Of a DNA stretch of 64,000 nucleotides, positions 5,436 to 51,448 are shown piece after piece (the stretch's first letter is position 1; every line of letters begins with the position of its first letter). The position numbers and the translations under genes are program-made. The notes beneath the pieces were generated by a model, which made no database searches, was not told the DNA's origin, and saw nothing but the letters and a program-made list of their open reading frames with translations. Source of the stretch: Desulfuromonadales bacterium (GTDB lineage: Bacteria > Desulfobacterota > Desulfuromonadia > Desulfuromonadales > SZUA-540); the NCBI GenBank assembly GCA_033549025.1, contig JAWSUS010000008.1, positions 59,905-123,904 on the forward strand, in the 5' to 3' direction.

Positions 5436-6959
5436 TCAGATGAAGACCGGATTGGTGAGCACGGGTTTGAGCGAAACCACCTCTTCGCCGACCGGGTCGA
5501 GGTTACCTTCTTCCCGGATCAGCATGGCGCATCGCACCGCGTCGATGATGTGGTCGTTGCCCTTGGAATAGATGATCTTGCCGTCCCGCAGGGTGTAGGT
5601 GTGGGTGGTGAATTGGTCTTCCACCTCCAGGTCGTCCGAGGGGAAAATGACCTGCTTACGCTGTAGGGCTCCGTTGATGAGGCTGGTCATCAGCTCCTTG
5701 GTTCGCTTCTTGATTTCCTTTCCGTCCCGCACCGCCAGCCGGGTCATGCCGCCGAAGTCGTATCCCTTGAGCCTGCCTTCCAGCTCCAGCCCTTTGTACT
5801 TGTCCAGGGTGAGCAGCTCCTGAACCACCGCCAGACCGTTTCCGCCGTTGTCCACGCCGATGCCCGCCGGGGTGTAGTAACGCTCCAGCAGCGCGATGAT
5901 CTGGGCGATGTGCGGATAGGAAACGTGTTCAAGATGCACGCGCAGGATCATCTTCAGCAGCGTCCGCTCGCCGATCTCCGTCTCCTGGAATACGACGATC
6001 TCGGTGGGGTCGTTGGTGTAGCCCAGGTCGCCGCCAACCCAGAACTGCCCGCTGCGGGGCGTGAGGTTGAGCAGCATCTCCAGCCGGTCGTGGGCCGCTT
6101 CCTCAGTGTCGCAATCGCGCAGCTCGGAATCGGTGATGACGATCTTCTGATACTCCAGCAGATCTTGCCGACAGAGGTTGAACTGTTCGACATTGAAGGC
6201 CCCATAGGAGGGCTTGCCGTGTTCACCGGCCACTTCGTGCTGCCAGCCGGAACTGTCGCGGCCGCCGTAGAACTCCAGCAGTTCGGCCTCGCGATCCTCA
6301 GTCCAAAGAGGGTTGAGCCAGGACGGCCAGCGGAACACATGGAACTGCACCGACGAGGTGAGCCGGTAATAGGTGGTGTCGCGCAGGCCGTTGGGCGTGG
6401 AGTAGATGCGTAGCGTCCCCCCGGCCTTGAGGCACTGGCGCAGCGCCTTCCAGGCCCGTTCGGTCAGCCAGGCTCCTTCATCGACCCAGACGCGGCCCAC
6501 GTGCAGGGACCGGAAGGCGTCGCCATAGGCCCCGGCCGGGCGGAAATAGAGCACCGAACCGTTGGTGAACTCCAGCCGGAAGTAGGGTTTGCGGTGGATC
6601 TTGGGCTTGCCGTACTTGGTCAGGGCAATGCTGTTCATCAGATCCGGGTTGGTGTCGAGCTGGAACTCGATCTCCTCGATGATGGTATCGAGGTGGCCCT
6701 GGTGCGGAGCCGCGATGAGGCCCTGGCCGCCTCGGGTGGTGAAGGCGTAATGGAGCGCGTCGGTCGAGAGCACGATGGACTTGCCCACGTCCCGGCCGTC
6801 GAGGTGAATGATGTTCTTGGCCGGGCAACGCAGGTCCTCCACCTGGTGCGGCCAGTAGTCGCGGCCTGAGCCATCCCGGTTGTAGAGATAGGCTTGCCCC
6901 CACAACACGGGGTCGCTCAGGGTTGCCGCGAGTTTGCGCTCCTTGTCGGTTACCGCCAT
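5436..6959 (-). CDS. Terminase large subunit
   Basis: Walker A-like GRDVGKS, Walker B VWVDEG, coupling motif STPNG, RNase H-like nuclease motifs GGDLG and NDHIIDA; start taken at MAVTDK. Confidence 0.9.
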   Translation of the reverse strand: MAVTDKERKLAATLSDPVLWGQAYLYNRDGSGRDYWPHQVEDLRCPAKNIIHLDGRDVGKSIVLSTDALHYAFTTRGGQGLIAAPHQGHLDTIIEEIEFQLDTNPDLMNSIALTKYGKPKIHRKPYFRLEFTNGSVLYFRPAGAYGDAFRSLHVGRVWVDEGAWLTERAWKALRQCLKAGGTLRIYSTPNGLRDTTYYRLTSSVQFHVFRWPSWLNPLWTEDREAELLEFYGGRDSSGWQHEVAGEHGKPSYGAFNVEQFNLCRQDLLEYQKIVITDSELRDCDTEEAAHDRLEMLLNLTPRSGQFWVGGDLGYTNDPTEIVVFQETEIGERTLLKMILRVHLEHVSYPHIAQIIALLERYYTPAGIGVDNGGNGLAVVQELLTLDKYKGLELEGRLKGYDFGGMTRLAVRDGKEIKKRTKELMTSLINGALQRKQVIFPSDDLEVEDQFTTHTYTLRDGKIIYSKGNDHIIDAVRCAMLIREEGNLDPVGEEVVSLKPVLTNPVFI

Positions 6960-7237
6960 CAGTGCATTCCTGTCCTCAAGGCGTTGCCGAGGATGGTGCC
7001 CACCAGTTCCGTCAGGATCTGCTGCACGGCCAGGGTGTTCTTCCGGTCGTGGACAGCTTCCTGAATGTCGATGATGGCCTGGTCCAACTCCGCCCAAGCC
7101 AGGTACTGCTGCTGGGCCGCTTCCAGACGGCCGAGGGCGTTCTCTATCCGTCCCGCCGCCAGCTCGGTGCCGATTTCGACCAGGGCCTCACCGGCCTGGC
7201 GGACGGCATCGCTGTTTTCCTGAAGGATCTCTTTCAT
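6959..7237 (-). CDS. Hypothetical helical protein (92 aa)
   Basis: ATG after GGAGG; overlaps both neighbouring genes. Confidence 0.7.
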   Translation of the reverse strand: MKEILQENSDAVRQAGEALVEIGTELAAGRIENALGRLEAAQQQYLAWAELDQAIIDIQEAVHDRKNTLAVQQILTELVGTILGNALRTGMH

Positions 7238-7506
7238 TGGCCTGCCTCCTGGTTCGAGCCGTTGGCCCACTGGTCAAGGGCGTCCACGGCGGTCTGCAGG
7301 CGCAGGCCGACACCGGTCAGGCGCTCGGCGTCCGGGTGGCCGACCTCGCGTAGCGCCTTGTTGGCCTCGGTCACATACTCGGGTGTGTGGCGGTTGACGG
7401 TGGCCACTGCCGACTGGATCTGGGCCGGAGGCCGGTAGGTGGCGCAGCCGGTCATGATCCCGGCAAGGACCAGCGGGATGGTCCATTCGAGTGTCTTCTT
7501 CAACAT
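7234..7506 (-). CDS. Predicted lipoprotein (90 aa)
   Basis: MLKK + hydrophobic stretch + lipobox-like IMTG-C; AGGAG RBS. Confidence 0.7.
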   Translation of the reverse strand: MLKKTLEWTIPLVLAGIMTGCATYRPPAQIQSAVATVNRHTPEYVTEANKALREVGHPDAERLTGVGLRLQTAVDALDQWANGSNQEAGQ

Positions 7507-7646
7507 GTTGATCTCCTTTGGTTTATGGGTTTGGGGCACATGCAGAAAGATCTCTGCAAACACTTGATTTCCAACGAAATAGAAGCGTCATTGGATGTGA
7601 CGCGGGATGGTCCCGCATCCACGAAAACCGGAACCGGAGGCAGGCC

Positions 7647-7841
7647 ATGACCTACGACAGAAACCGCCAGCAGGCACTCAAGGCGTACCGAGAAAAGCAG
7701 GAGAACATCGCCCGGCTGATCGAGGGCATTCGCGGCAAGCTCGAAGCGGACGCGAAGCAGCCGGACATCACCTGGGCGAGCGTCGGCTCCCTCGGCCACG
7801 TCGAGGAACTGCTGCGGGAGCTGGACGAGTTCCTGTCCTGA
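7647..7841 (+). CDS. Small hypothetical protein (64 aa), first gene of the tyrosine recombinase cassette
   Basis: ATG after GGAGG; amphipathic helical sequence; same direction as the next two genes. Confidence 0.7.
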   Translation: MTYDRNRQQALKAYREKQENIARLIEGIRGKLEADAKQPDITWASVGSLGHVEELLRELDEFLS

Positions 7842-7874
7842 ACACACCGGGCCACCGACAAAGGAGACATCGAC

Positions 7875-8249
7875 ATGACCGAATGCACCGTGCATCAAGC
7901 CGCCGAGGCTTTCATCGGCTACCTGCGGGAATCCGGAAAGAAAGAGCGGACCCTTTACACCTACCGGAAGGACCTCGACGCGGTGGAGGCCTTCTTCGGC
8001 GCGGATCGCCAGCTCGCCGAGATCCGGCTTCCCCAGGTCGGCAAGTTCTACAAGTCCGACCTGCTGCTCAAACTCCCTGACGGCAAGGAGCGGGCCGAGC
8101 GCACCATTGCCAAGACCGTCCGGGTGTTCCGCATGATGATGGTCTGGGCCAGGGAGTCGGGGCGCATCGAGGAGCTGCCGCTGCCCAAGAGCACGCCCAT
8201 GGGCCACAGCCGGGTAAAGGAGTCCAGCGATGAGCAACCGAACGGCTGA
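7875..8249 (+). CDS. Stand-alone integrase N-terminal SAM-like (core-binding) domain protein, no catalytic domain
   Basis: FIGYLRESGKKERTLYTYRKDL ... AERTIAKTVRVFRMMMVWA parallels the N-terminus of the adjacent recombinase; AAGGAG RBS. Confidence 0.75.
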   Translation: MTECTVHQAAEAFIGYLRESGKKERTLYTYRKDLDAVEAFFGADRQLAEIRLPQVGKFYKSDLLLKLPDGKERAERTIAKTVRVFRMMMVWARESGRIEELPLPKSTPMGHSRVKESSDEQPNG

Positions 8250-9144
8250 CCTCGATCTGACGGGCGCGACAGAGGCGTTCTGTGCCCGCCTGTCGGCCGA
8301 AGGACGCTCCCCGGCGACCATAGCCGCATACCGCCGGGACCTCGCCCTGGTAGTCCGCGTGGCCGGGGAGCTGGCCCCTGGGATCGTCTGCCGGGAGGTC
8401 ACGGTCGGGTTCCTCGACCAGGTGTTCTCCGCCGGGGCGGTCACTGAGAGTGAGCGAGGCCCACGTTCGGCGGCCTCGCTCCATCGGATGAAGGCGGCGG
8501 TGCGGGCCTTTTTTGCCTGGGCCGCCGAGACGGGCGTGGTCGGTGACAACCCGGCCCGGTCCATCCGCATGCATCGGTTGCCAAGAAAGCTGCCAGTCTT
8601 CCTGACTACCGCCGAAAAGAAACGTCTGCTCAAGGAGCTCAAGGGGCGGACCGATTTCTCCACGCTGCGCGACCGCGCCATGATCGAGGTGTTGCTGGGC
8701 ACGGGGATCAGGCTTGGCGAGCTGGCCGCGCTCGACATGGATGACATCGACCTCGACGCCAAGCATCTGCGGGTGCGGGCCAAGGGGAATGTGCCGCAGG
8801 TCAAGTTCATCAAGACCGACCTCCGCACATTGCTGCGCCGTTACCTGGCCGAGCGTCGTCGACACGGCCGCCCAGAAATGGAAGCCCTGTTCCTGTCGAA
8901 CCGGGACGGCAGACTCTGCCAGCGGCAGATAGCCAACCGGCTCGCCCACTGGCTGCGGAAGGCCGGGATCGAAAAGGAACTGACGCCGCACGGGCTGCGG
9001 CATACCTTCGCCACCCACCTCTACGGCGCGACCAATGACCTGCTCGTGGTGCAGCGGGCCTTGGGGCACCGGGACGTGTCCACCACCCAGATCTACACCC
9101 ACCTCGTGGACGGTCAGCTCGAGGAAGCCCTCGAACGCCTTTGA
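8230..9144 (+). CDS. XerC/XerD-like tyrosine recombinase
   Basis: Full catalytic set: GTGIRLGEL (R), RAKGN (K), HGLRHTFAT (HxxR), LGHRDVSTTQIY (H, Y). Confidence 0.95.
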   Translation: MSNRTADLDLTGATEAFCARLSAEGRSPATIAAYRRDLALVVRVAGELAPGIVCREVTVGFLDQVFSAGAVTESERGPRSAASLHRMKAAVRAFFAWAAETGVVGDNPARSIRMHRLPRKLPVFLTTAEKKRLLKELKGRTDFSTLRDRAMIEVLLGTGIRLGELAALDMDDIDLDAKHLRVRAKGNVPQVKFIKTDLRTLLRRYLAERRRHGRPEMEALFLSNRDGRLCQRQIANRLAHWLRKAGIEKELTPHGLRHTFATHLYGATNDLLVVQRALGHRDVSTTQIYTHLVDGQLEEALERL

Positions 9145-9345
9145 TCCTTCCGGACCCGACGATGGGAGCGGCCTCGGCTGCTCCTGTTTTCGTTGGGCGA
9201 GACAGTGTCGAAGACAGTGAATGACAGTGCCCGCAGAAGAACACATCCGCCGATGATGAATGATCATGACGGAGGGTCTCTACATCCCGGGTGGGGCGGG
9301 AAATATCGATTGACCGGAATTTCTCCTTCGCTGTCTGTCGGCCGC

Positions 9346-9575
9346 ACATCGCTATAACTGCTTGGCTTGTGCGCTCCAGTCGCGGAACACACATGGCAAT
9401 ATCTGCTTGGCATATGCGAGGGCCGTTGCCGAAGGAATGGCTGTTTGCGGGGCTTGTCCGGTTCGGCCTGGGTCTCGACATGCCAATATCTACTTGGGTT
9501 ATGTGAGAGAGCCCCGGCGTGAACATGCCTATATCTGCTTGGCTTATGCGGTTCGGCTTATGCGCACACATGCCA
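9346..9575. repeat. Array of about 5.5 units with 45-bp period: ~28-bp conserved core plus ~17-bp variable segment
   Basis: Core ACATGCCWATATCTGCTTGGCTTATGCG starts at 9346, 9391, ~9435 (degenerate), 9478, 9523 and, partially, 9568. Confidence 0.85.
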
Positions 9576-9668
9576 AGCGGATATCGGGAGCTGCTGGAGG
9601 AAGTCGAGGAGTGGAAATGATGATCGACGGCCGGTGAATGCCGATTCCGAAAGTGCAAGGAACACGTC

Positions 9669-9757
9669 TTATCCGCAATTCCTGGTGTAGCTGTCTGCCG
9701 CAAGTCGCCGTGTGCCGGGGTCATCGGAAAAGCCCTCCATGGTGTTATCCGCAATTC
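9669..9757. repeat. 13-bp direct repeat TTATCCGCAATTC (9669-9681, 9745-9757)
   Basis: Exact duplication; the second copy contains the stop codon of the TerS-like gene. Confidence 0.75.
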
Positions 9758-10245
9758 TTTCCGCGTTTCTTGCGGCCGGAGGTTTTCGTTGCCGGGGCGT
9801 TGGCGGCCTCGGCCACCTTCTCGAGCAGCGCCGCCGCCCATTCCGCCGGAGAGGTCTGCGGGCCTTTCGGCTCCTCACCCTCGCGGGCAATCTTGGTGGT
9901 CTTGAGATCCTTCATGTGGCAGCGGATCATCCGGTCGAGCTTTTCGGCGGCGTCGGTGTTCCCCTCGATCTGGGCGCGGACCAGCTTCACCGAATAGACG
10001 CCCACCAACTCCACCTGCAGGAAGTCGCTGGACTTGTTGAACTCGAAGTCCTGGTTGAGTCGGTCGATGATCGCGTCGAACATGACCTTCTCTTCCGGAG
10101 TCAGGCAGCGGTCGGCGAAGATGCCGTGACGCAGCCGGTTCTGGTTGCCCTCGGGCGCACCAGGCCCGCGCCGGGGCGGTTCGGTCTTACCCTCGTTGCG
10201 GTGCCAGCGGTCCAGCGTCTCTTTGTCCGGTTTGTTCAGTGCCAC
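9745..10245 (-). CDS. Probable terminase small subunit
   Basis: GAPEGNQNRLRHG resembles the GAPxGNxNAxKHG motif of TerS proteins; upstream of TerL on the same strand. Confidence 0.65.
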   Translation of the reverse strand: MALNKPDKETLDRWHRNEGKTEPPRRGPGAPEGNQNRLRHGIFADRCLTPEEKVMFDAIIDRLNQDFEFNKSSDFLQVELVGVYSVKLVRAQIEGNTDAAEKLDRMIRCHMKDLKTTKIAREGEEPKGPQTSPAEWAAALLEKVAEAANAPATKTSGRKKRGKNCG

Positions 10246-10336
10246 GTGGAAATCCTGCCGAATATTGTTTTCCCAAGCCGGGATGCGGGGCGGGAGGCCG
10301 ATTTAGCCTCCAAACGCGCTCCCGCCGGTTCAGGGG

Positions 10337-10367
10337 TTACTTACCGGAAGCGGCGGCCAACTGTCGG
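10337..10367 (-). promoter_or_regulatory. Element-specific promoter-like motif upstream of the TerS-like gene
   Basis: CCGAC-AGTTGGCCGCCGCT-TCCGGTAAGTAA; the final TAA is also the stop of the upstream gene. Confidence 0.7.
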
Positions 10368-10615
10368 TCCCGGTCCTGTTTTCGTTCGGCGGCGATGATC
10401 TGATTGACCCGGCGAGTGGTCACTCCAGCGAGGTTGGAGATCTCCTGGCTGCTGATCCCCTGCAGATGAAGGGCAAGCACCAGGTCGCGGCGCTCCTGGT
10501 AAAACCTGCTCGGTGCAGGAACCCAGAGAATCCCGGTGTAGTGCTTCTGGATCTGCTCGAAGAGTTCCTCGGGCAGGACTTCCTTGGCGTTGGCGTAGCG
10601 TTTCTTTTTCTTCAC
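10337..10615 (-). CDS. Small HTH transcription regulator (Mor/CD3324-like)
   Basis: YANAKEVLPEELFEQIQKHYTG.LWVP N-terminus plus C-terminal HTH (ISSQEISNLAGVTTRRVNQII). Confidence 0.7.
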   Translation of the reverse strand: MKKKKRYANAKEVLPEELFEQIQKHYTGILWVPAPSRFYQERRDLVLALHLQGISSQEISNLAGVTTRRVNQIIAAERKQDRDRQLAAASGK

Positions 10616-10618
10616 GGC

Positions 10619-11389
10619 TCAATCCTCCACTTTCTTCATCCACGGCTGCGGCACGTCCGGGTTGTAGAACCGCAGCGTGCTGGGACGCCCGGACTTCGGC
10701 CCGTGGATAATTTCGATAGAACGCTCGGTGACCTCGCCAATCTCCTGATCGCCATCGACGAAGCAGACCAGGCCGTAGTCCTCGCCGCAGGGAAACCGGA
10801 AGCGGCCCTGGTTCTGATAGAGGCGTGCCTCGGACCAGCCCTTGGCCATGGCCTCCTCACGGATGGCGTCGACCTTGGCGACAGCCTGGGAAGTCACCGG
10901 CTGCTTACATTTCCAAGCTTGGTTCCCGGGATAAATCCAGTCCTTTCTGGGAGTTTCGACGGGTTTCTCCTGGGACTCGGGACGAAGCGCGGGTGGCCGG
11001 TAGTTCTTCGGGGAAAAGGACTGCAGGACCTCCTGGAGGCTTTCCTTGCCGAATTCCCGGATGGCCAGCTCCTGCAGGGCGTTGAATCGCTGCCGCAGCG
11101 TATTCCAGGCATCCTCGGGGAGCTTTCCGGCCTTGTGCGCGGCTTGGGCGGTGACCATGCGGGAACGTAGCCAGGCAAAGTATTCAGGCGACAGACGGCG
11201 ACACAGCGTGCCGTCGATCTCCATGTCTTCAGGCCAGTCGCGTGCGTCTTCGATCTCGTGGACGTCGAGCCCAGTGGAGACATAGATGGCGGGCTGCGGT
11301 GGTTGCGGTGGTAATAATGGGACTTCACATCCGGCCGAGGCGTCCTGACCTCCGGCGGTGTGCTTGATCATGGTTTTCAGAAGGCTCAT
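10619..11389 (-). CDS. Hypothetical protein (256 aa)
   Basis: Clean ORF downstream of a promoter motif; no family recognised. Confidence 0.7.
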   Translation of the reverse strand: MSLLKTMIKHTAGGQDASAGCEVPLLPPQPPQPAIYVSTGLDVHEIEDARDWPEDMEIDGTLCRRLSPEYFAWLRSRMVTAQAAHKAGKLPEDAWNTLRQRFNALQELAIREFGKESLQEVLQSFSPKNYRPPALRPESQEKPVETPRKDWIYPGNQAWKCKQPVTSQAVAKVDAIREEAMAKGWSEARLYQNQGRFRFPCGEDYGLVCFVDGDQEIGEVTERSIEIIHGPKSGRPSTLRFYNPDVPQPWMKKVED

Positions 11390-11429
11390 GGTTTCAGGCT
11401 CCAGAAATACGGGTTAATCGCTTTTCCCG

Positions 11430-11460
11430 TTACTTACCGGATCTGCCCTGAAACCGTCGG
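11430..11460 (-). promoter_or_regulatory. Element-specific promoter-like motif
   Basis: CCGAC-GGTTTCAGGGCAGA-TCCGGTAAGTAA, about 40 bp upstream of ATG 11389. Confidence 0.7.
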
Positions 11461-11471
11461 TGACCATCTGC

Positions 11472-11823
11472 TGCGGTGGATACGTGCGGTGGCTGCGGTG
11501 GTCGTGCGGTGGAAGGTTTCCTCGTCCCACCGCAGGGCATGGCTCTTTGTTTGTTATTTGTTTTTAGATAGTTATGAAGAAAGAGAAGATAGAGTGCGGT
11601 GGTTGCGGTGGTATTTGGGGAATGTCTCTCTCGCTGGGCCGGAATTTCTCTAGCGGGAAACGCCAGGTTGGTAGGAAGGAAAAATATTTCAGCCCATAGG
11701 GGGTGAGACCTCTGGGTTTACCACCGCAACCACCGCAAAGGCCATGAAAGCTCTGTCTGGCAAGGGTTTGGCGTGCGGTGGTTATCCACCGCAAGGGACA
11801 GCGGTGTTCACCGCACCACCGCA
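11472..11823. repeat. Putative replication origin: 12 TGCGGTGG octamers in both orientations with an AT-rich tract
   Basis: Direct copies at 11472, 11485, 11494, 11505, 11595, 11604, 11774; inverted at 11527, 11721, 11730, 11786, 11816; AT-rich ~11545-11592; immediately downstream of the primase-helicase. Confidence 0.75.
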
Positions 11824-25589: not shown

Positions 25590-26114
25590 ATGAATGAGTT
25601 ACAGAACGCCGCCACCGGCGGCAAGAATCAGGACCGAACCCGAAACTCGGTCCTTCGGCAGATGGCCCTGCTGCAATCCATGTCCCTGGAGCAGCTCCGG
25701 GAAAAATGGCTCGACCTCTACGGAGAAGAGCCGCCCCAGTACAAAAAGCAATTCCTCATCAAGCGGCTGGCTTATCGCATCCAGGAGCTTTTCTACGGCG
25801 GGCTGTCCGAGCAGGCCAAGGTCCATCTTCAGCAGGCCGCTAAGGAGGACCCGGTCGCCACTGTCAATCGACGCATCCCAGAGGAGCGGAAATCGAACGA
25901 GGCGATCCTGCCCGGGACCAGACTAGTGCGGATCTGGAACGACCGGCGCTATGAGGTGATCGTCCTTGCCGATGGCTACGAGTTCGAAGGTCGCACATTC
26001 CGGTCGCTCAGCGCGGTGGCCAGGGAGATCACCGGGACGCGCTGGAACGGCAAAGTCTTTTTCGGGCTGAAGAAGGTTTACGGCAGAAAAGCCGAGGGAG
26101 GTTCGGATGCTTGA
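25590..26114 (+). CDS. DUF2924 domain protein
   Basis: LREKW..LYG..PP, RLAYRIQELFYGGL, PGTRLVRIW, SLSAVAREITGTRWNG. Confidence 0.9.
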   Translation: MNELQNAATGGKNQDRTRNSVLRQMALLQSMSLEQLREKWLDLYGEEPPQYKKQFLIKRLAYRIQELFYGGLSEQAKVHLQQAAKEDPVATVNRRIPEERKSNEAILPGTRLVRIWNDRRYEVIVLADGYEFEGRTFRSLSAVAREITGTRWNGKVFFGLKKVYGRKAEGGSDA

Positions 26115-27693
26115 TAACAGCAATGTCGCGCCGGGCAAGAACAAGACCCTGCGCTGCGCCATTTACACACGCAAGAGTCATGAGGAAGGACTCGAACAGG
26201 AGTTCAACTCGTTGGATGCGCAACGGGAATCGGCGGAACACTATATCGAAGCCCAGAGGATGCGGGGCTGGACGGCTCTGCCGGATCGCTATGACGATGG
26301 TGGTTTCTCGGGCGGGAACATGGAGCGTCCGGGGCTACGCCGCCTGCTGGCGGATATAGACGCCGGGAAGATCGATGTGATCGTCGTCTACAAGGTCGAC
26401 CGCCTGTCCCGCTCGCTGCTGGACTTCATGAAGATGATCGACCTCTTCAACGAAAAGGGCGTCAGCTTCGTCTCGGTCACCCAGCACTTCAGCACCACCG
26501 ATCCCACCGGCCGGATGTTTCTCGGCATCCTGATTACCTTCGCCCAGTACGAGCGGGAGGTCATCGCCGAACGTATCCGGGACAAGGTGGCGGCAGCCAA
26601 GCGCCGGGGAAAATACTGCGGCGGCGTGCCCATCCTCGGATACGACGTCGACCGGGATAACAAGAAGCTGCTGGTCAACCCGGATGAAGCCAGGACGGTG
26701 CAGTACATCTTCCGCCGCTTCATCCAGATCGGCTCGGCCAAGAAGCTGGGCCAGGAATTGAACGAACAGGGGTACCGCACCAAGGCCTGGACCACCAAGA
26801 AAGGCAAGGTGCGCGAGGGCTCCGAATGGAACACCGCCCACATCTACCGGCTGCTCAACAACCGGATCTATATCGGCGAGATCGCCCACAAGGACCGCAG
26901 CTACCCCGGCGAGCACGAAGGGATCATCGACCGGGCGACCTGGGACAAGGTTCAGGCCATCCTGGAGGACAACAAACCGGTCAAGGTATCCATGGCCAGA
27001 ACCAAAATGGTCGCCCCGCTGAAGGGTGTCATCCGCTGCGGCCACTGCGGCTGCTCGATGGGACCGACCTACGCCCGCAAGAACGGCCGCCACTACACCT
27101 ATTACATCTGCCAGAAGGACAGCAAGCGGACCGTGAGCCGGTGCCCGCTCAAGCGGATTCCTGCCGGGGATATCGAGCAGGCCGTGGTCGAGCAGTTGAG
27201 CGCGGTGTTCCGCACACCGACGCTGGTGGCCAAAACTTACTTCGCGGCTCGGGACATTGAGCAGGTGGAGCGGGAGCGGCTGTTCAAGCAAAAAGCCCAA
27301 CTCGAGATGGAGCTATCACAAGCGCGGGAGCAGGCACTTGAACTGATGAAACCCGGCAACGATCAGCCGGGCAAATCCGAGATGCTGACGACCGTCAACC
27401 GTCAGGCGGTCGAGCTCTCGAAACAACTGACCCATGTGAGCGAGCGCTGCAGAGCCTACCAGGGGAACAGCATCACGGAACAGGATGTGTCGGAGGCCTT
27501 CCAAAATGTCGAGGGCTTCTGGGAAGACCTTTTCCCGGTGGAGCGGAATCGCCTCATCCGCCTCCTGGTGGACAAGGTGGAGATCCGCGAGACTGGAATC
27601 GACATGGAGCTGCGCACCAACGGGCTGACAACGCTCATCGCCGAGCTGGCCGGTCTGGCATGCGAAGTCACTGAACGGAGAGCAAGCCGATGA
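26107..27693 (+). CDS. Large serine recombinase (resolvase + recombinase + Zn ribbon)
   Basis: CAIYTRKS catalytic Ser, VYKVDRLSRS, CGHCG...YYIC zinc ribbon, coiled coil. Confidence 0.95.
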   Translation: MLDNSNVAPGKNKTLRCAIYTRKSHEEGLEQEFNSLDAQRESAEHYIEAQRMRGWTALPDRYDDGGFSGGNMERPGLRRLLADIDAGKIDVIVVYKVDRLSRSLLDFMKMIDLFNEKGVSFVSVTQHFSTTDPTGRMFLGILITFAQYEREVIAERIRDKVAAAKRRGKYCGGVPILGYDVDRDNKKLLVNPDEARTVQYIFRRFIQIGSAKKLGQELNEQGYRTKAWTTKKGKVREGSEWNTAHIYRLLNNRIYIGEIAHKDRSYPGEHEGIIDRATWDKVQAILEDNKPVKVSMARTKMVAPLKGVIRCGHCGCSMGPTYARKNGRHYTYYICQKDSKRTVSRCPLKRIPAGDIEQAVVEQLSAVFRTPTLVAKTYFAARDIEQVERERLFKQKAQLEMELSQAREQALELMKPGNDQPGKSEMLTTVNRQAVELSKQLTHVSERCRAYQGNSITEQDVSEAFQNVEGFWEDLFPVERNRLIRLLVDKVEIRETGIDMELRTNGLTTLIAELAGLACEVTERRASR

Positions 27694-28533: not shown

Positions 28534-28889
28534 TGGTGGAGGTGGCGGGAATCGAACCCGCGTCCGAAAACCTTTCACGTAAGGCTTCTACATGCTTAGT
28601 CGGTGTTTTGAGTTTAACCCGGAACCGCTCCCACAGACAGGATTTGAACCGGGCGAGTCTGCTTTATTTCGCCTCTGCACCGCAGTCACTTGCAGAGACT
28701 AGCCCACTAAATTGACGTCTCAGACCCTACGCGGGCGATAAGGAAAGAGACGAGGCAGCAATTAAGCTGCCAGTGCGTACGAAACGTCAGAGTCGGCGTT
28801 TGTATTGTTGCCAGTTTTTTAACGAGGCCCACTGGCGTCCCCGGCATGCCACCTTCGCTTCCGATCCCCGTCGAAACCTTGACACCCCC
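28534..28889 (-). ncRNA. ssrA: tmRNA; tag reading frame 28797-28762 encodes ADSDVSYALAA
   Basis: 5' GGGGGTGTCAAGGTTTCGAC; 3' GGTTCGATTCCCGCCACCTCCACCA; tag ends YALAA; next to smpB. Confidence 0.97.
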
Positions 28890-38600: not shown

Positions 38601-40408
38601 AAGATCTTTTTACGGTCGAGGGTGACGGTAAAGTCGATTTCATCCTCAACGCACAGATTCAGGTTTTCCATATAGGGAATCAGGTCGTTGAGGAAGCTGT
38701 TATGCAGGCTGTAGAACTGCAACCGGTACGTTTTGCCCTCGAAGGGCCCCCACAGATCGAGGACTTCTTCGCCCCCCTGCAAAACCTGCTCGATGCCCCG
38801 GATATCCCGCACGGCAAACCGGGGATGCAGCAGGGCCTTGTACTCAAGGGGGAAGACATCCTGATAGCGCTTGGCCATCGCCGCCCCTTCGACCTCGCCG
38901 AGGCGATGTTCCAGCTGATTGCGGATTTTAAGATCCCAGGGACGGATTTTCCGGCTCAGTCCGCGCTCGAGGCGATCCATATCGAGGACGATTTTCGACT
39001 GGTCGACGTGAATATGGACATGAAGACTAATGAAGTCGGGACTGATGTGAATGACCTTGGAGACGACCCGTTTCGTCTGGAAAAAGAGGGAAAGATAGTG
39101 CTCGATGCGCGTCACCCGTTCGGACGAATAATAGTTCCGCGGCATGATGACCAGCAGGGTAATGCCCCGCACCGCCAGACTGCGCGTCGCCACAATCTTG
39201 ATGGCGTCGTGCCGGTAGAGCAGAGCGAAGGAACGGACCGTCTGGGTCAGCTCCTCATCACTCATGAAGAAGAGTTCGACCTTGGGAAACGTGTTGAAGA
39301 TTTCATGGGTCTTACGATAATCGTGACTTCCCGGCAATATGTGGAGACGGTTTAAAACGCCTTCAAAGCGTTGCTGCAGCGCCGGTACGTTAAAGGCCAG
39401 CTCGTCGGCGCTGCGGGGAGAGAAGAGCCCCAGGAAGATGTGCTCCAGCTGCCGCCCGTCGGCCATCTCTTCGCGAACGCCGATATAGACGAGCGGATCG
39501 GCCCGGTAGACAAGACTCACCCGCTCGAGCGTATCCACCACCACATCGCGATCCCGCTGCAGGCGGGCGCAGGTCGGCTCATGACAGTCGCCCAAAGGCC
39601 GGGGAGAGGAGAGGTCCACCTCCTCCGGGTCAAAGGGGATGCCGAGGGAATCTTCGACCTGCAGATGCACGGTCGTTGCACCCCGACGGTCTTTGGACAG
39701 ATTCAGGCCATGGTAGCCGAAAGGCAAAAAGTTGCCTTCCTGCAGCCAGCTCCAGAAATCGGCGAAGCCCCCCTTTTTCGCCAGGACCTGCATGTCCTGC
39801 AGGCGGGCGTTCATGGCGGCACCGTCCTGGTGAACGGCCAGGGTGGCCAGGAGCGCTTTACGCACCCCCTGCTCGATCCGCAAAAAGGTCTCGGAGGAAA
39901 CGCCTTCGATTTCAACGATGATAAAAGATTCCTTCGGCCCCACGGCCTCGATGGAGTCGATGGCGACCAGCTTGTCCTGCTGCCGGTGGACGGTCAGAAT
40001 GGGATGGGCGATCAGGCGAAAGTCGATATGATGACTGAGCAGGTAGGATTGCACCGAATCGAGCAGGTAGGATTGCACCGAATCGAGCAGGAAGGGTGCG
40101 TCGGGAGAATTGGTCACCAGCAGAGCGTGCCCTTCCACCTCCAGAGGCTCGAGGGCAACGACCAGCTGCTGCCGCGGCGCTTCAAGCAGGCCGAGAAAGA
40201 TATCCAGCCACGAGGCGATCTGGTCCTCTGAAGCCGCGGCCATATAGGACAACGGCGTGGTGGCACGCAGGGACTCGGCCAGGGCGGCCAGACACTGGTA
40301 CTTGGCATCATCGACCTGGGCTCGATAACCGCGCAATACGGCGTCGATGCGTTGTTCCATTTCCTGGGGCGATACCCCTTGGGTTCCGGATACGACCTTG
40401 ATGTCCAT
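35624..40408 (-). CDS. Large NAD-specific glutamate dehydrogenase
   Basis: 1594 aa; RGGIRWSDR, VAADKGTA, GIGDMSGDVFGNG, DNSAGVDTSDHEVN. Confidence 0.95.
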   Translation of the reverse strand: MDIKVVSGTQGVSPQEMEQRIDAVLRGYRAQVDDAKYQCLAALAESLRATTPLSYMAAASEDQIASWLDIFLGLLEAPRQQLVVALEPLEVEGHALLVTNSPDAPFLLDSVQSYLLDSVQSYLLSHHIDFRLIAHPILTVHRQQDKLVAIDSIEAVGPKESFIIVEIEGVSSETFLRIEQGVRKALLATLAVHQDGAAMNARLQDMQVLAKKGGFADFWSWLQEGNFLPFGYHGLNLSKDRRGATTVHLQVEDSLGIPFDPEEVDLSSPRPLGDCHEPTCARLQRDRDVVVDTLERVSLVYRADPLVYIGVREEMADGRQLEHIFLGLFSPRSADELAFNVPALQQRFEGVLNRLHILPGSHDYRKTHEIFNTFPKVELFFMSDEELTQTVRSFALLYRHDAIKIVATRSLAVRGITLLVIMPRNYYSSERVTRIEHYLSLFFQTKRVVSKVIHISPDFISLHVHIHVDQSKIVLDMDRLERGLSRKIRPWDLKIRNQLEHRLGEVEGAAMAKRYQDVFPLEYKALLHPRFAVRDIRGIEQVLQGGEEVLDLWGPFEGKTYRLQFYSLHNSFLNDLIPYMENLNLCVEDEIDFTVTLDRKKIFIKSFTIRTSPAKALALAEVRPLLLDALQALRRGQVENDYLHGILVLTGLSWQQIDVFRGYRNYYFQLGCPYTKKRVAMALIHNAEVTHLLYRYFEARFLDKPEWADPLKREEEALSPIRMQLITALQDVSDVNEDNILRALFNLIDSTVRTNFYRRAGSKDYFFAFKISAMGIIDMPAPRPLFEVYVHSAAMEGIHLRGGRVARGGIRWSDRPDDFRTEVLGLMKTQMTKNALIVPVGSKGGFVVKTPYSNRDEGAELSKAAYQTLMRGLLDLSDNRVGDTVVRAEGIVAYDEKDPYLVVAADKGTAHLPDTANAVSREYRFWLDDAFASGGSHGYDHKKLGITARGAWECVKSHFRELGQDIQKEPFTVVGIGDMSGDVFGNGMLLSPHIRLVAAFDHRHIFLDPDPDAVATFAERRRLFHLPRSSWDDFNRHLLSEGGGIFARSAKEIPLSPQVRKFLGIRQESIDPNSLIKLLLTAEVDLLWNGGIGTYVKESGEKHEDAGDRNNDAVRVDGNQLRARVVGEGGNLGFTQRARIEFAQNGGRINTDAVDNSAGVDTSDHEVNLKIFMQYLKDKGKIASQQERDRILAEVTDEVCSQVLANNYEQHLCLSLDLRRSQGEIEPYVQLIDSLARSGLLDRRGEFLPSAKDIQARQGQKLTRPELAILMAYSKMQLYQGILESELPRSPEAGDFLLRYFPGPIRRSFLTDLPEHPLAREITATVITNNIINQAGSAFLSALVQQTGKSLIDAAAAYLTFDRMLEGERLRAGLYALDNVLSAERQQALLIRLEEALQSLCHWALLHDVWGSLADKGIETLRENLALFYKTIGGVLPAEIWAGCKDEAAALVEAGLDTEVAHHLSLLDHAADFLPLMTLAEETGGDFYAVAQAFREIRQLLGYGDLLKDVERVPLRDRWDRMARRSLQEGFETVVYDMVRVVLKDHQGNLDALCSLRKQKLRRFQALRESLRGQVAVNFHPFTVLLNAAEGLCV
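40037..40091. repeat. Exact in-frame 24-bp tandem duplication inside gdh
   Basis: GAGCAGGTAGGATTGCACCGAATC x2 + GAGCAGG, giving LLDSVQSY twice. Confidence 0.95.
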
Positions 40409-50140: not shown

Positions 50141-51448
50141 TCAGATAGACACCGTGCATCCCGTTGTTGAGATGCCGCCGGGGAAGAAAAGCTTCTCCGA
50201 CGTTTGAGGTTTGAACGAAAACGGCGCAATCGTCGTTCTCGCACTACTGACGGGGATTGCGCCCCGCAGGCCGTGCCACACGGCTGGTTTAAATCGTTTC
50301 AGAAAATTGAGCCCGCTGTGATGATCGCGGGGAAATGAAAATTGGCAGCGTTCGCAGACGAAACCTCTTTTCGACGGGGAGATCCCCTGGGAATGAACGT
50401 GCCCGCAAGCGACACAGGTTCGGGTCGTGCCCCGCTCATCAAACTCGTCGACGCTCTGGCCGGTTAGGAGTTGGGCTTTGTAGCTCAACATCTCGACAAG
50501 TTTGCGAACCGGGTTGTTGTTCTGTACCGCACGGTTGATGCGGCGGTTGACAAACGGGAACGGGGTGTCGGCCAGGGTTGCTTGCTTATCCCAATCGCCG
50601 ATTTTGAATCCGCGTGCCGCCGGGTGCTGAATGAGAATCTGGTTGGCGAGCGTATGCAGATAGCTTTTCGTCCGTCCGGCGACCTTACGCCAGAGTGCCG
50701 CGATACGCTTGTTTAACCGCCGCCAGGCCAGGCTTCCTTTCTTTTTCGTGTCCCGACGGCTGGACAGTTTGTCGAGCAGTCGGTAGGTGCTCATGTTCAT
50801 GTTGCGAAGAGGGTTGATGTCATATTCGACAAATCGCCCTTCGGTGGTAATGCCGGTCAGGGTGTTCTTACATCCCGGATCGAAGTAAATCCAATAGCCA
50901 TCGGATTTCTTTTGAGCCTCGGGGACCTCGACCGACATCCAGGCAACGAACCTCTTGGCCAAGTCGTCGAACCCGACCCGAACCGTTTTGACCCCGGAGT
51001 AGTCTCCTTCGGGGAGGGTCATCGCCAGCCAATCCTTGTGTGTTCGGCCAAAGGCGATATTCAGCGTAGGACCTTCGATCTCGAAAGAGGTTCCGCGTTG
51101 CGGATAATTCTGGGTAAAGAATCGACGTCCGTTGCGAAACCCGGGCGGGTTGGCTTCCGTGTCACCGTTTTTGCGTTTGGCGAAAAAGGACCTGTAGCTG
51201 CCATCGAGGGTTTTGACCACCTCCTGCAAAACCTGGGAAGATGGATCTTTCAAGCGGGGATCGCCCTTTTTCATTCCCGGCAAGAGCCGCTTTTGTGAGT
51301 AATAGTTTGCCTTGCGACCGTCTCGCAGAGCTGCTTGCCGGTCTTCGACAAGGGCGTTCCAGACCCGGTTGCAACAACGGCCGATGTACCACAAGGTGGT
51401 CGCCGTTTCGGGTGTCAGCTCCAGATATGCGGTGCGGGTCAGGATCAT
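50141..51448 (-). CDS. tnpB: RNA-guided endonuclease TnpB (rearranged RuvC type)
   Basis: N-terminal CNRVWN, RuvC-I YFDPG, TTRTCVACG...CERC zinc finger, RuvC-III RDHHSGLN. Confidence 0.92.
   Translation of the reverse strand: MILTRTAYLELTPETATTLWYIGRCCNRVWNALVEDRQAALRDGRKANYYSQKRLLPGMKKGDPRLKDPSSQVLQEVVKTLDGSYRSFFAKRKNGDTEANPPGFRNGRRFFTQNYPQRGTSFEIEGPTLNIAFGRTHKDWLAMTLPEGDYSGVKTVRVGFDDLAKRFVAWMSVEVPEAQKKSDGYWIYFDPGCKNTLTGITTEGRFVEYDINPLRNMNMSTYRLLDKLSSRRDTKKKGSLAWRRLNKRIAALWRKVAGRTKSYLHTLANQILIQHPAARGFKIGDWDKQATLADTPFPFVNRRINRAVQNNNPVRKLVEMLSYKAQLLTGQSVDEFDERGTTRTCVACGHVHSQGISPSKRGFVCERCQFSFPRDHHSGLNFLKRFKPAVWHGLRGAIPVSSARTTIAPFSFKPQTSEKLFFPGGISTTGCTVSI

Follow-up and report, generated by a model that had tools for sequence, protein, structure and literature searches.

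A possible phage-encoded genome-resolution module with a stand-alone core-binding-domain protein, located between prophage terminase genes

In a 64,000-nt stretch of a Desulfuromonadales bacterium genome (GCA_033549025.1, contig JAWSUS010000008.1, positions 59,905 to 123,904 of the forward strand; hereafter the window), a prophage carries between its terminase genes an Xer-like tyrosine recombinase, a separate protein that consists of a core-binding (CB) domain, and, downstream of both, a dif-like site (A) together with a copy of its right arm (B). Based on the conservation and arrangement of these parts in sequence, we hypothesize that they constitute a phage-encoded genome-resolution module in which the recombinase acts at A, a reading that we hold to be reasonably probable. 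The module itself is real and probably functional. With less assurance than for action at A, and by analogy with known systems, the CB-only protein would be an accessory subunit of this module. An initial annotation made from the window alone had proposed a possibly undescribed recombinase system with a catalytically empty paralogue, which our survey supports. It had sought the recombination sites in a 45-bp repeat array and had not singled out positions 9652-9679, where site A lies.

The recombinase, its core-binding paralogue and sites A and B

Two scans yielded 142 loci, 120 of them with a recombinase identity of at least 54%; these are counts of loci and not of independent phages, and some records occur in both collections. 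Upstream genes were counted in the 105 loci with enough upstream DNA, and arrays and sites in the 107 loci with a recombinase identity of at least 54% and at least 900 nt downstream. The CB gene was present in 103/105 loci, the remaining two being interrupted there by foreign DNA, and an Xer-like gene followed it in 103/105. The gene for a 64-aa protein, which precedes the CB gene in the window, was found in 94/105 and the terminase large-subunit gene (terL) in 100/105. The co-occurrence that the initial annotation had suggested testing holds for the CB gene and largely for the 64-aa gene, and fails for the array, which is absent altogether from 28/107 loci.

The recombinase (8230..9144, plus strand, 304 aa) is intact, with Pfam Phage_integrase and SAM_1 matches above cut-off, and its residues R161-K185-H254-R257-H280-Y289 are all invariant in 19/19 aligned relatives. 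With a CB domain, a catalytic domain, no arm-binding domain and a complete catalytic set, it is a simple (Xer-like) tyrosine recombinase. When compared with the NCBIfam equivalogs XerC, XerD, XerA and XerS, it scored 223, 206, 194 and 115 bits against cut-offs of 335, 330, 220 and 267, respectively; XerC gave the highest value, yet all four lie under their cut-offs and the protein belongs to none of these families. The host genome encodes its own XerC- and XerD-like genes.

The CB-only protein (7875..8249, plus strand, 124 aa), whose gene immediately precedes that of the recombinase, lacks a catalytic domain and is a paralogue of the recombinase N-terminus, which its profile matched with a probability of 97.5. 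Its structural model is a four-helix core-binding domain (pLDDT 88), and the closest folds in a fold search were integrase and Xer CB domains, none of them at E<=0.001. The optional 64-aa gene (7647..7841, plus strand; phrog_14596) encodes a helical hairpin modeled as two helices; its variation is synonymous-biased (17/28), and a fold search of its product against viral structures returned no match. The three genes are oriented opposite to the terminase small-subunit gene (terS; 9745..10245, minus strand, PHROG terminase small subunit E 1e-4) and to terL (5436..~6960, minus strand, domain and PHROG matches), and two more small genes separate the module from terL.

Site A (9652..9679) has a dif-like 11-6-11 layout and the top paired-arm score in window positions 1-28500, +26 on a family arm matrix that includes the window's own clade; it is the likely crossover site. 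Site B (9741..9755), a direct copy of the A right arm that lies 76 bp from A and overlaps the terS stop, is likely accessory. Both were found in 105/107 loci by a search anchored on B with a lenient rule for A. The spacing between them was 75-76 bp in all 108 loci where they were found (A to B spans 104 bp here), and an alignment of 16 clade representatives has no gap in this stretch, whereas the intervening DNA drifts. Among 30 close alleles, diversity was 0.002 at A and 0 at B, in comparison to 0.10-0.12 at fourfold-degenerate sites. The B arm tracks the A right arm (83/105 matches, shuffled mean 64, the loci being kin and not independent), and B is retained where terS is read through it in a different frame, or where a methylase gene ends there or replaces terS. 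The center of A is 6 bp, or 7 bp in one subclade and in L035. Its arms form a dyad at 6/11 positions here and at 3-10/11 across 18 site types, as in Xer/dif-type sites. In several clades the A left arm is common to a palindrome, P, or is swapped for cargo DNA.

The pairing of a CB-only protein with a recombinase extends well beyond these loci. A CB family profile search returned 342 clusters (50% identity) at E<=1e-10. The 149 best new clusters range from 68 to 295 aa, often with basic low-complexity tails, and a catalytic-box pattern matched one among the CB clusters, which proved to be no recombinase. Strong CB matches occurred in 7/401 genomes of the window's phylum, each adjoining a recombinase, and CB matches in 20/401 genomes of the phylum of L022 (Planctomycetota by record). 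Out of 25 distant CB loci, 19 have an Xer-like gene within about 1 kb downstream, five end too soon and one has none; these Xer-like proteins are 29-41% identical to the window recombinase, and the pair thus persists. Four longer CB matches were inspected for CB-CB-catalytic fusions and none has that form, which is weak evidence. The CB protein had no match among cultured phages and one weak integrase match among plasmids.

A terminase stands beside the pair in three of six distant elements inspected. These three (L315, L317 and L318) share the gene order (methylase)-terL-CB-Xer-primase, all on the same strand, and L315 also carries its own integrase. L314 and L316 have a methylase and a primase or helicase near the pair, and L319 has no phage neighbor among the open reading frames scanned. 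Scans with single CB proteins from distant loci gave one new lineage (L207/L208), one short contig of the close type and two blanks; in L207 (37% identity) the pair once more has terL on one side and terS on the other. Behind a 41%-identical recombinase (L279/L314) there is a clear 11-6-11 site whose arms are related to those of the family (0/60 shuffles). In L315 (G520:C14:518000-532000), L317 and L318, methylase/ParB, terL, CB+Xer and primase genes fall within ~12 kb, and these compact elements are possibly an undescribed type of phage satellite.

Proposed action at site A and competing readings

In the proposed reading, the operon would be transcribed early after infection or induction from the promoter class that also serves the prophage's serine integrase. 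With two A sites in direct repeat, the recombinase would bind their arms and carry out strand exchange over the 6-bp spacer. Such pairs would arise in circular dimers or concatemers during replication. Alternatively, an injected genome with terminal redundancy would contain such a pair, provided that packaging begins within terS or close to it. Dimer resolution and post-injection circularisation are thus two alternative outcomes, and the product in either case would be a unit circle, available for insertion by the serine integrase or for replication. The non-cutting CB-only protein would bind B or an arm-like site, shape the synapse and favor resolution, like the accessory TnpI bound to DR1/DR2, while the 45-bp array would be an optional protein-binding add-on of two lineages and not a crossover site. 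More tentatively, in a widespread two-gene system the stand-alone CB domain may be a dedicated architectural subunit, split off from the recombinase and standing in for PepA/ArgR or for TnpI's own accessory copies, with an ancient tie to terminases, so that phages and satellites resolve or circularise their genomes in step with packaging and need no host Xer or RecA across phyla.

A natural hybrid is consistent with crossover at A. The contig L160/L211 is of the window type through the array and the A left arm and then of the type of L126 (70% clade), to which its right side is 100% identical over 4735 bp, and the switch falls in a 15-bp block that holds the A spacer. Since the two clades share ~36 blocks of at least 15 bp (706 bp) over ~8 kb, one crossover would be placed there by chance with a probability of 2-3%. 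As a comparison of sequences, we consider this hybrid suggestive and not proof.

Several observations weigh against resolution at A or limit the case for it. Of 61 viral contigs that bear the site, L211 alone is a hybrid at A, and its reciprocal was not found. It comes from a metagenome assembly with a short side of 421 bp, and its junction may be an assembly or library artefact; several further mosaic patches of window-type and 70%-clade sequence are located elsewhere. Linkage between single-nucleotide polymorphisms is low across A and not lower than elsewhere, with a linkage-decay ratio of 0.54 at A, 0.50-0.62 across 9100-9700 and 0.32 at 10500, values that are no guide to a crossover hot spot at A. 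Contigs of four runs over 6500-11500 have no joint at A or at the array, although contigs cannot reveal ends, strand or rare forms. Covariation between the left and right arms of A was not significant (59/105 versus a shuffled 53, p=0.09), and L019, L119 and L133 have other sequence in place of the left arm. No family-type site lies within 600 nt of 14/15 distant recombinases, nor within 550-590 nt in L303, L306 and L310, and the site model can be taken as established only for the recombinase family of at least 54% identity. We found no close relative of the terminase with known ends, and that the CB protein binds B, rather than the recombinase itself, is purely our inference.

It is possible, although unlikely, that A and B (and P) are pac-type packaging signals that happen to flank a recombinase acting elsewhere or on a further, unrecognized site. 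Both sites lie at the terS 3' end, the module stays beside terminase genes, and the fixed A-B spacing would also suit a wrap around terminase. However, A has the architecture of a tyrosine-recombinase site (AA-N6/7-TT with dyad arms), A and B are kept in L048-L051, L053 and L068, where no adjoining terS was detected, and in L314 the A-type site stands directly behind the recombinase.

Rather unlikely is also a regulatory module, in which the CB-only protein, perhaps with the recombinase, would act as a MrpR/SroF-like repressor that gates read-through from terS to terL; that its targets would be P, A/B or the array is equally doubtful. Recombinase-fold repressors exist (PMC10516654), and SroF and MrpR are among the weak fold matches of the CB protein. 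P looks operator-like, the module splits the packaging operon, and numerous distant CB proteins have tails that are basic and disordered. Against this reading, all six catalytic residues of the recombinase are invariant; moreover, MrpR retains the whole fold and has lost activity, in contrast to the pair of CB protein and recombinase, and the distant elements place the pair co-oriented behind terL and not within the operon.

The 45-bp array and the prophage setting

The array (9346..9584) comprises five units with a 45-bp period and an inverted end; it is lineage-specific, non-coding and mildly constrained. The repeat reported by the initial annotation is real, with the top 42-48-bp autocorrelation among 1594 windows of the 64 kb, while Tandem Repeats Finder does not detect it. 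Some unit starts were off and are corrected here to 9346, 9391, 9433, 9478, 9523 and 9568, the sixth unit being a partial inverted end piece (15/28). The ~28-bp cores hold for four units, which match the consensus at 23-27/28, and not for unit 3 (14/28); likewise, the variable parts of ~17 bp do not extend to unit 2, which is 42 bp long with a variable part of 14 nt. The described likeness of alternate units is weak, since the best pair agrees at 9/17 and units 2 and 4 at 3/14. The 10/11 match to the E. coli dif XerC arm, as that arm was then quoted, is present.

No coding signal was found across the array, as had been claimed. Two in-register frames are free of stops in 32/32 alleles, and their synonymous shares (20/89 and 25/89, expected 0.25 and 0.22) are unbiased, in comparison to 160/243 for the recombinase; a 15-aa repeat protein is thereby excluded. 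Among the 107 loci, 54 have a window-type array, 25 a different 45-bp array and 28 none. In a quick recombinase tree, the former is confined to the clade of at least 89% identity and the latter to one ~70% clade. The strain variation that the initial annotation had suggested testing was seen in unit number only: window-type arrays have five units in 38 loci, four in one, two in six and one in eight, and one is cut by an insertion, while the variable segments are identical per position in all strains. Diversity was 0.065 in variable parts and 0.053 in cores, about half that of fourfold-degenerate sites.

That the array is itself a working substrate, whether as a phased set of recombination sites, as scars of integration or as an RNA that is processed, is improbable. 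In its favor, unit number varies from one to five, diversity is about half neutral, the units are 11-7-11 dyads with 6-8/11 pairs, the second clade's own array has a 15/16 motif in common with it, and the minus strand folds at z -2.95. However, the dyads score from -31 to -44 on the family arm matrix, in contrast to +26 for site A, the array is missing from loci where the recombinase is kept, and its variable parts are fixed across strains. These findings support neither recombination sites nor serial integration scars nor a spacer-type RNA. There is no Rfam match above chance, and a fold score of this kind is what the terminal inverted repeat would give. The variable segments gave no informative match in the host genome, the comparison covering that genome and not phage or plasmid collections. 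Deletions run from one homologous core to another, the pattern to be expected of slippage or homologous exchange. A CRISPR or guide-RNA array is ruled out by the positionally fixed variable parts in 30 alleles, cores at 14-27/28 and the Rfam result, and integron cassettes or a shufflon by units that are gene-less and have one order and orientation in all alleles. Due to the fixed variable parts and the lack of synonymous bias, the array is neither an acquisition record nor a gene.

The second 45-bp-period array, with TTATGYGC cores, was seen in L022, L027-L029 and L116-L135, ~60-195 nt after the recombinase stop and left of P; the motif that it has in common with the first lies in opposite orientation (0/1000 shuffles). 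From period and motif, we read both arrays as optional platforms for the binding of a protein. The array is not plainly junk, given that the second clade's array also has the 45-bp period and the common motif; it is a side feature and the least important part of the system. Palindrome P (9299..9324, 9-8-9) is conserved, with compensatory arm changes across clades, and absent from the L048-L053 group; it could be an operator, an accessory site or a second recombinase-related site. An optional module of three GACAGT repeats (9201..9270, diversity 0.023) is common to several array-less clades and absent in others.

That the recombinase is a second integrase, inserting the phage into host dif or a site resembling it, is very improbable: the A arms resemble the XerC-type arm of the putative host dif (G000:C20:53258-53285, single copy in 11/21 related genomes), and in L036 similarity is lost just right of an A arm, beside a tmRNA gene, but A is intact in mid-prophage in 105/107 loci, its spacer differs from that of the putative host dif, which disfavors integration there, and the prophage ends in a serine recombinase. 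The element is accordingly no IMEX of the kind that integrates at host dif. Excision or inversion of the module that joins terS to terL was rejected, as no second A-like site lies upstream; a 19-bp inverted pair at 7238/7629 consists of two similar ribosome-binding regions.

The region is a prophage of ~63 kb, as defined by gene content and GC, with primase, RecD2-like helicase and recombination genes. The large serine recombinase (26107..27693, plus strand) lies where the prophage ends, next to the tmRNA gene (28534-28889), and, by inference from this position, is likely the prophage integrase; att repeats were looked for in the prophage and not found. A promoter-like motif (7563..7592, plus strand) stands ahead of the three-gene operon and upstream in 98/103 related loci scored. 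It has three matches in the 62.7-kb prophage versus 0.125 in shuffles, one being the training site, another (25520) preceding the operon of DUF2924 and the serine integrase, and the third lying outside the window (G000:C8 near 28770) ahead of one more gene. The shared motif is a hint that the module is put to use soon after entry or induction. A terminator-like hairpin with a T-run (9164..9190, plus strand) is present in sequence after the recombinase stop and in most relatives; a consensus scan did not detect it.

Several further features were observed. Directly 3' of the primase gene, positions 11295-11823 hold nine TGCGGTGGT copies in both orientations, a candidate replication origin. The host part of the window contains a TnpB-like (IS605 OrfB) gene (50141-51448), and a 24-bp tandem repeat of 2.5 copies (40037-40095) lies inside the NAD-glutamate dehydrogenase gene region. 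The interval between recombinase and site A is a cargo hot spot in L019, L026, L036, L038, L042, L119 and L133, with small antitoxin-like and Fic/Doc-like genes and a nuclease-like gene (labeled by reading the sequence); in L019, L119 and L133 nothing separates the end of the cargo from the inner left arm of A. REP/MITE-type insertions, short and rich in hairpins, occur in the intergenic region and the terS tail, as 75- and 66-bp insertions in L011, L091, L095 and L101 and at the terS end in L027 and L122.

In L003, L004, L008, L011, L012, L014 and L018 the prophage region is nearly identical (recombinase at least 95%). The hosts are named Desulfobacterota isolates, Ectothiorhodospira shaposhnikovii (Gammaproteobacteria) and bins of several further phyla, and the family is apparently a cross-phylum temperate phage. 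If resolution at A holds, the module would probably yield single circles from viral genomes that are joined or linear, and it may account for one prophage family being functional in several phyla. On the more tentative reading given above, near-identical phages might operate in such different hosts independently of host Xer and RecA.

Comparison with known systems

By analogy, the anatomy of the module appears closest to TnpI/IRS and its placement closest to Cre/loxP of phage P1. The latter lies near pac, has a role in circularisation and uses loxP sites of 13-8-13 layout. It has been called a multimer resolution system (PMC10999674). Cre and the window recombinase are both phage-encoded tyrosine recombinases with an adjacent site of their own near terminase genes that does not serve normal integration; however, the protein described here has an Xer-like sequence, its core is 11-6-11, it has an accessory site and a helper gene, and the prophage likely integrates by a serine recombinase, whereas P1 lives as a plasmid. 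Resolution in TnpI/IRS is imposed by accessory motifs that lie next to the core as direct repeats (PMC2847244). Like TnpI/IRS, the module combines one simple tyrosine recombinase with a site of ~100-120 bp that consists of an inverted core and directly repeated arm-like motifs, the repeated motif lying here at a fixed 75-76 bp. The differences are that it belongs to a phage and not a transposon, has one clear accessory copy instead of DR1 and DR2, and encodes a dedicated CB-only protein, whereas TnpI itself occupies its accessory sites.

Like XerCD/dif, whose E. coli site has the 11-6-11 layout, cer/psi and XerS/difSL (PMC5357621), the module has an Xer-type protein and an 11-6-11 core; the gene is linked to its own site as for XerS/difSL, and accessory sequences are present as for cer/psi. 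In contrast to these systems, it falls below the XerC, XerD, XerA and XerS cut-offs, is phage-borne, and would use a recombinase fragment as accessory factor and not PepA/ArgR or FtsK. Tyrovirus gp50 is likewise an Xer-like recombinase of unexplained function, encoded within a phage structural module and closely followed by an 11-6-11 site, although the arms of that site are perfectly inverted, it lies near the tape-measure gene, and no CB-only partner is described in the accessible part of the report (PMC9703825). RitA, with two CB domains in one chain (PMC8138268), is a precedent for an extra CB domain, which is here a separate gene. The repressors MrpR (PMC10516654) and SroF (bioRxiv 10.1101/2025.11.27.690993) are precedents for recombinase-derived DNA binding without cutting; the pair described here does not belong with them, as MrpR keeps the catalytic-domain fold whereas the CB partner lacks that domain and the recombinase residues are intact.

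In the literature covered, mostly outside subscription journals and excluding supplements, we found no description of a CB-only partner beside phage terminases. The CB+Xer pair is nonetheless common, as the 342 clusters indicate, and the compact set of recombinase, site and helper, with its natural arm variants, could be useful for orthogonal recombination tools. Known means of controlling the directionality of tyrosine recombinases are architectural proteins of the host, arm-binding domains and additional enzyme copies; if our reading is true, a free core-binding domain would be a further solution.

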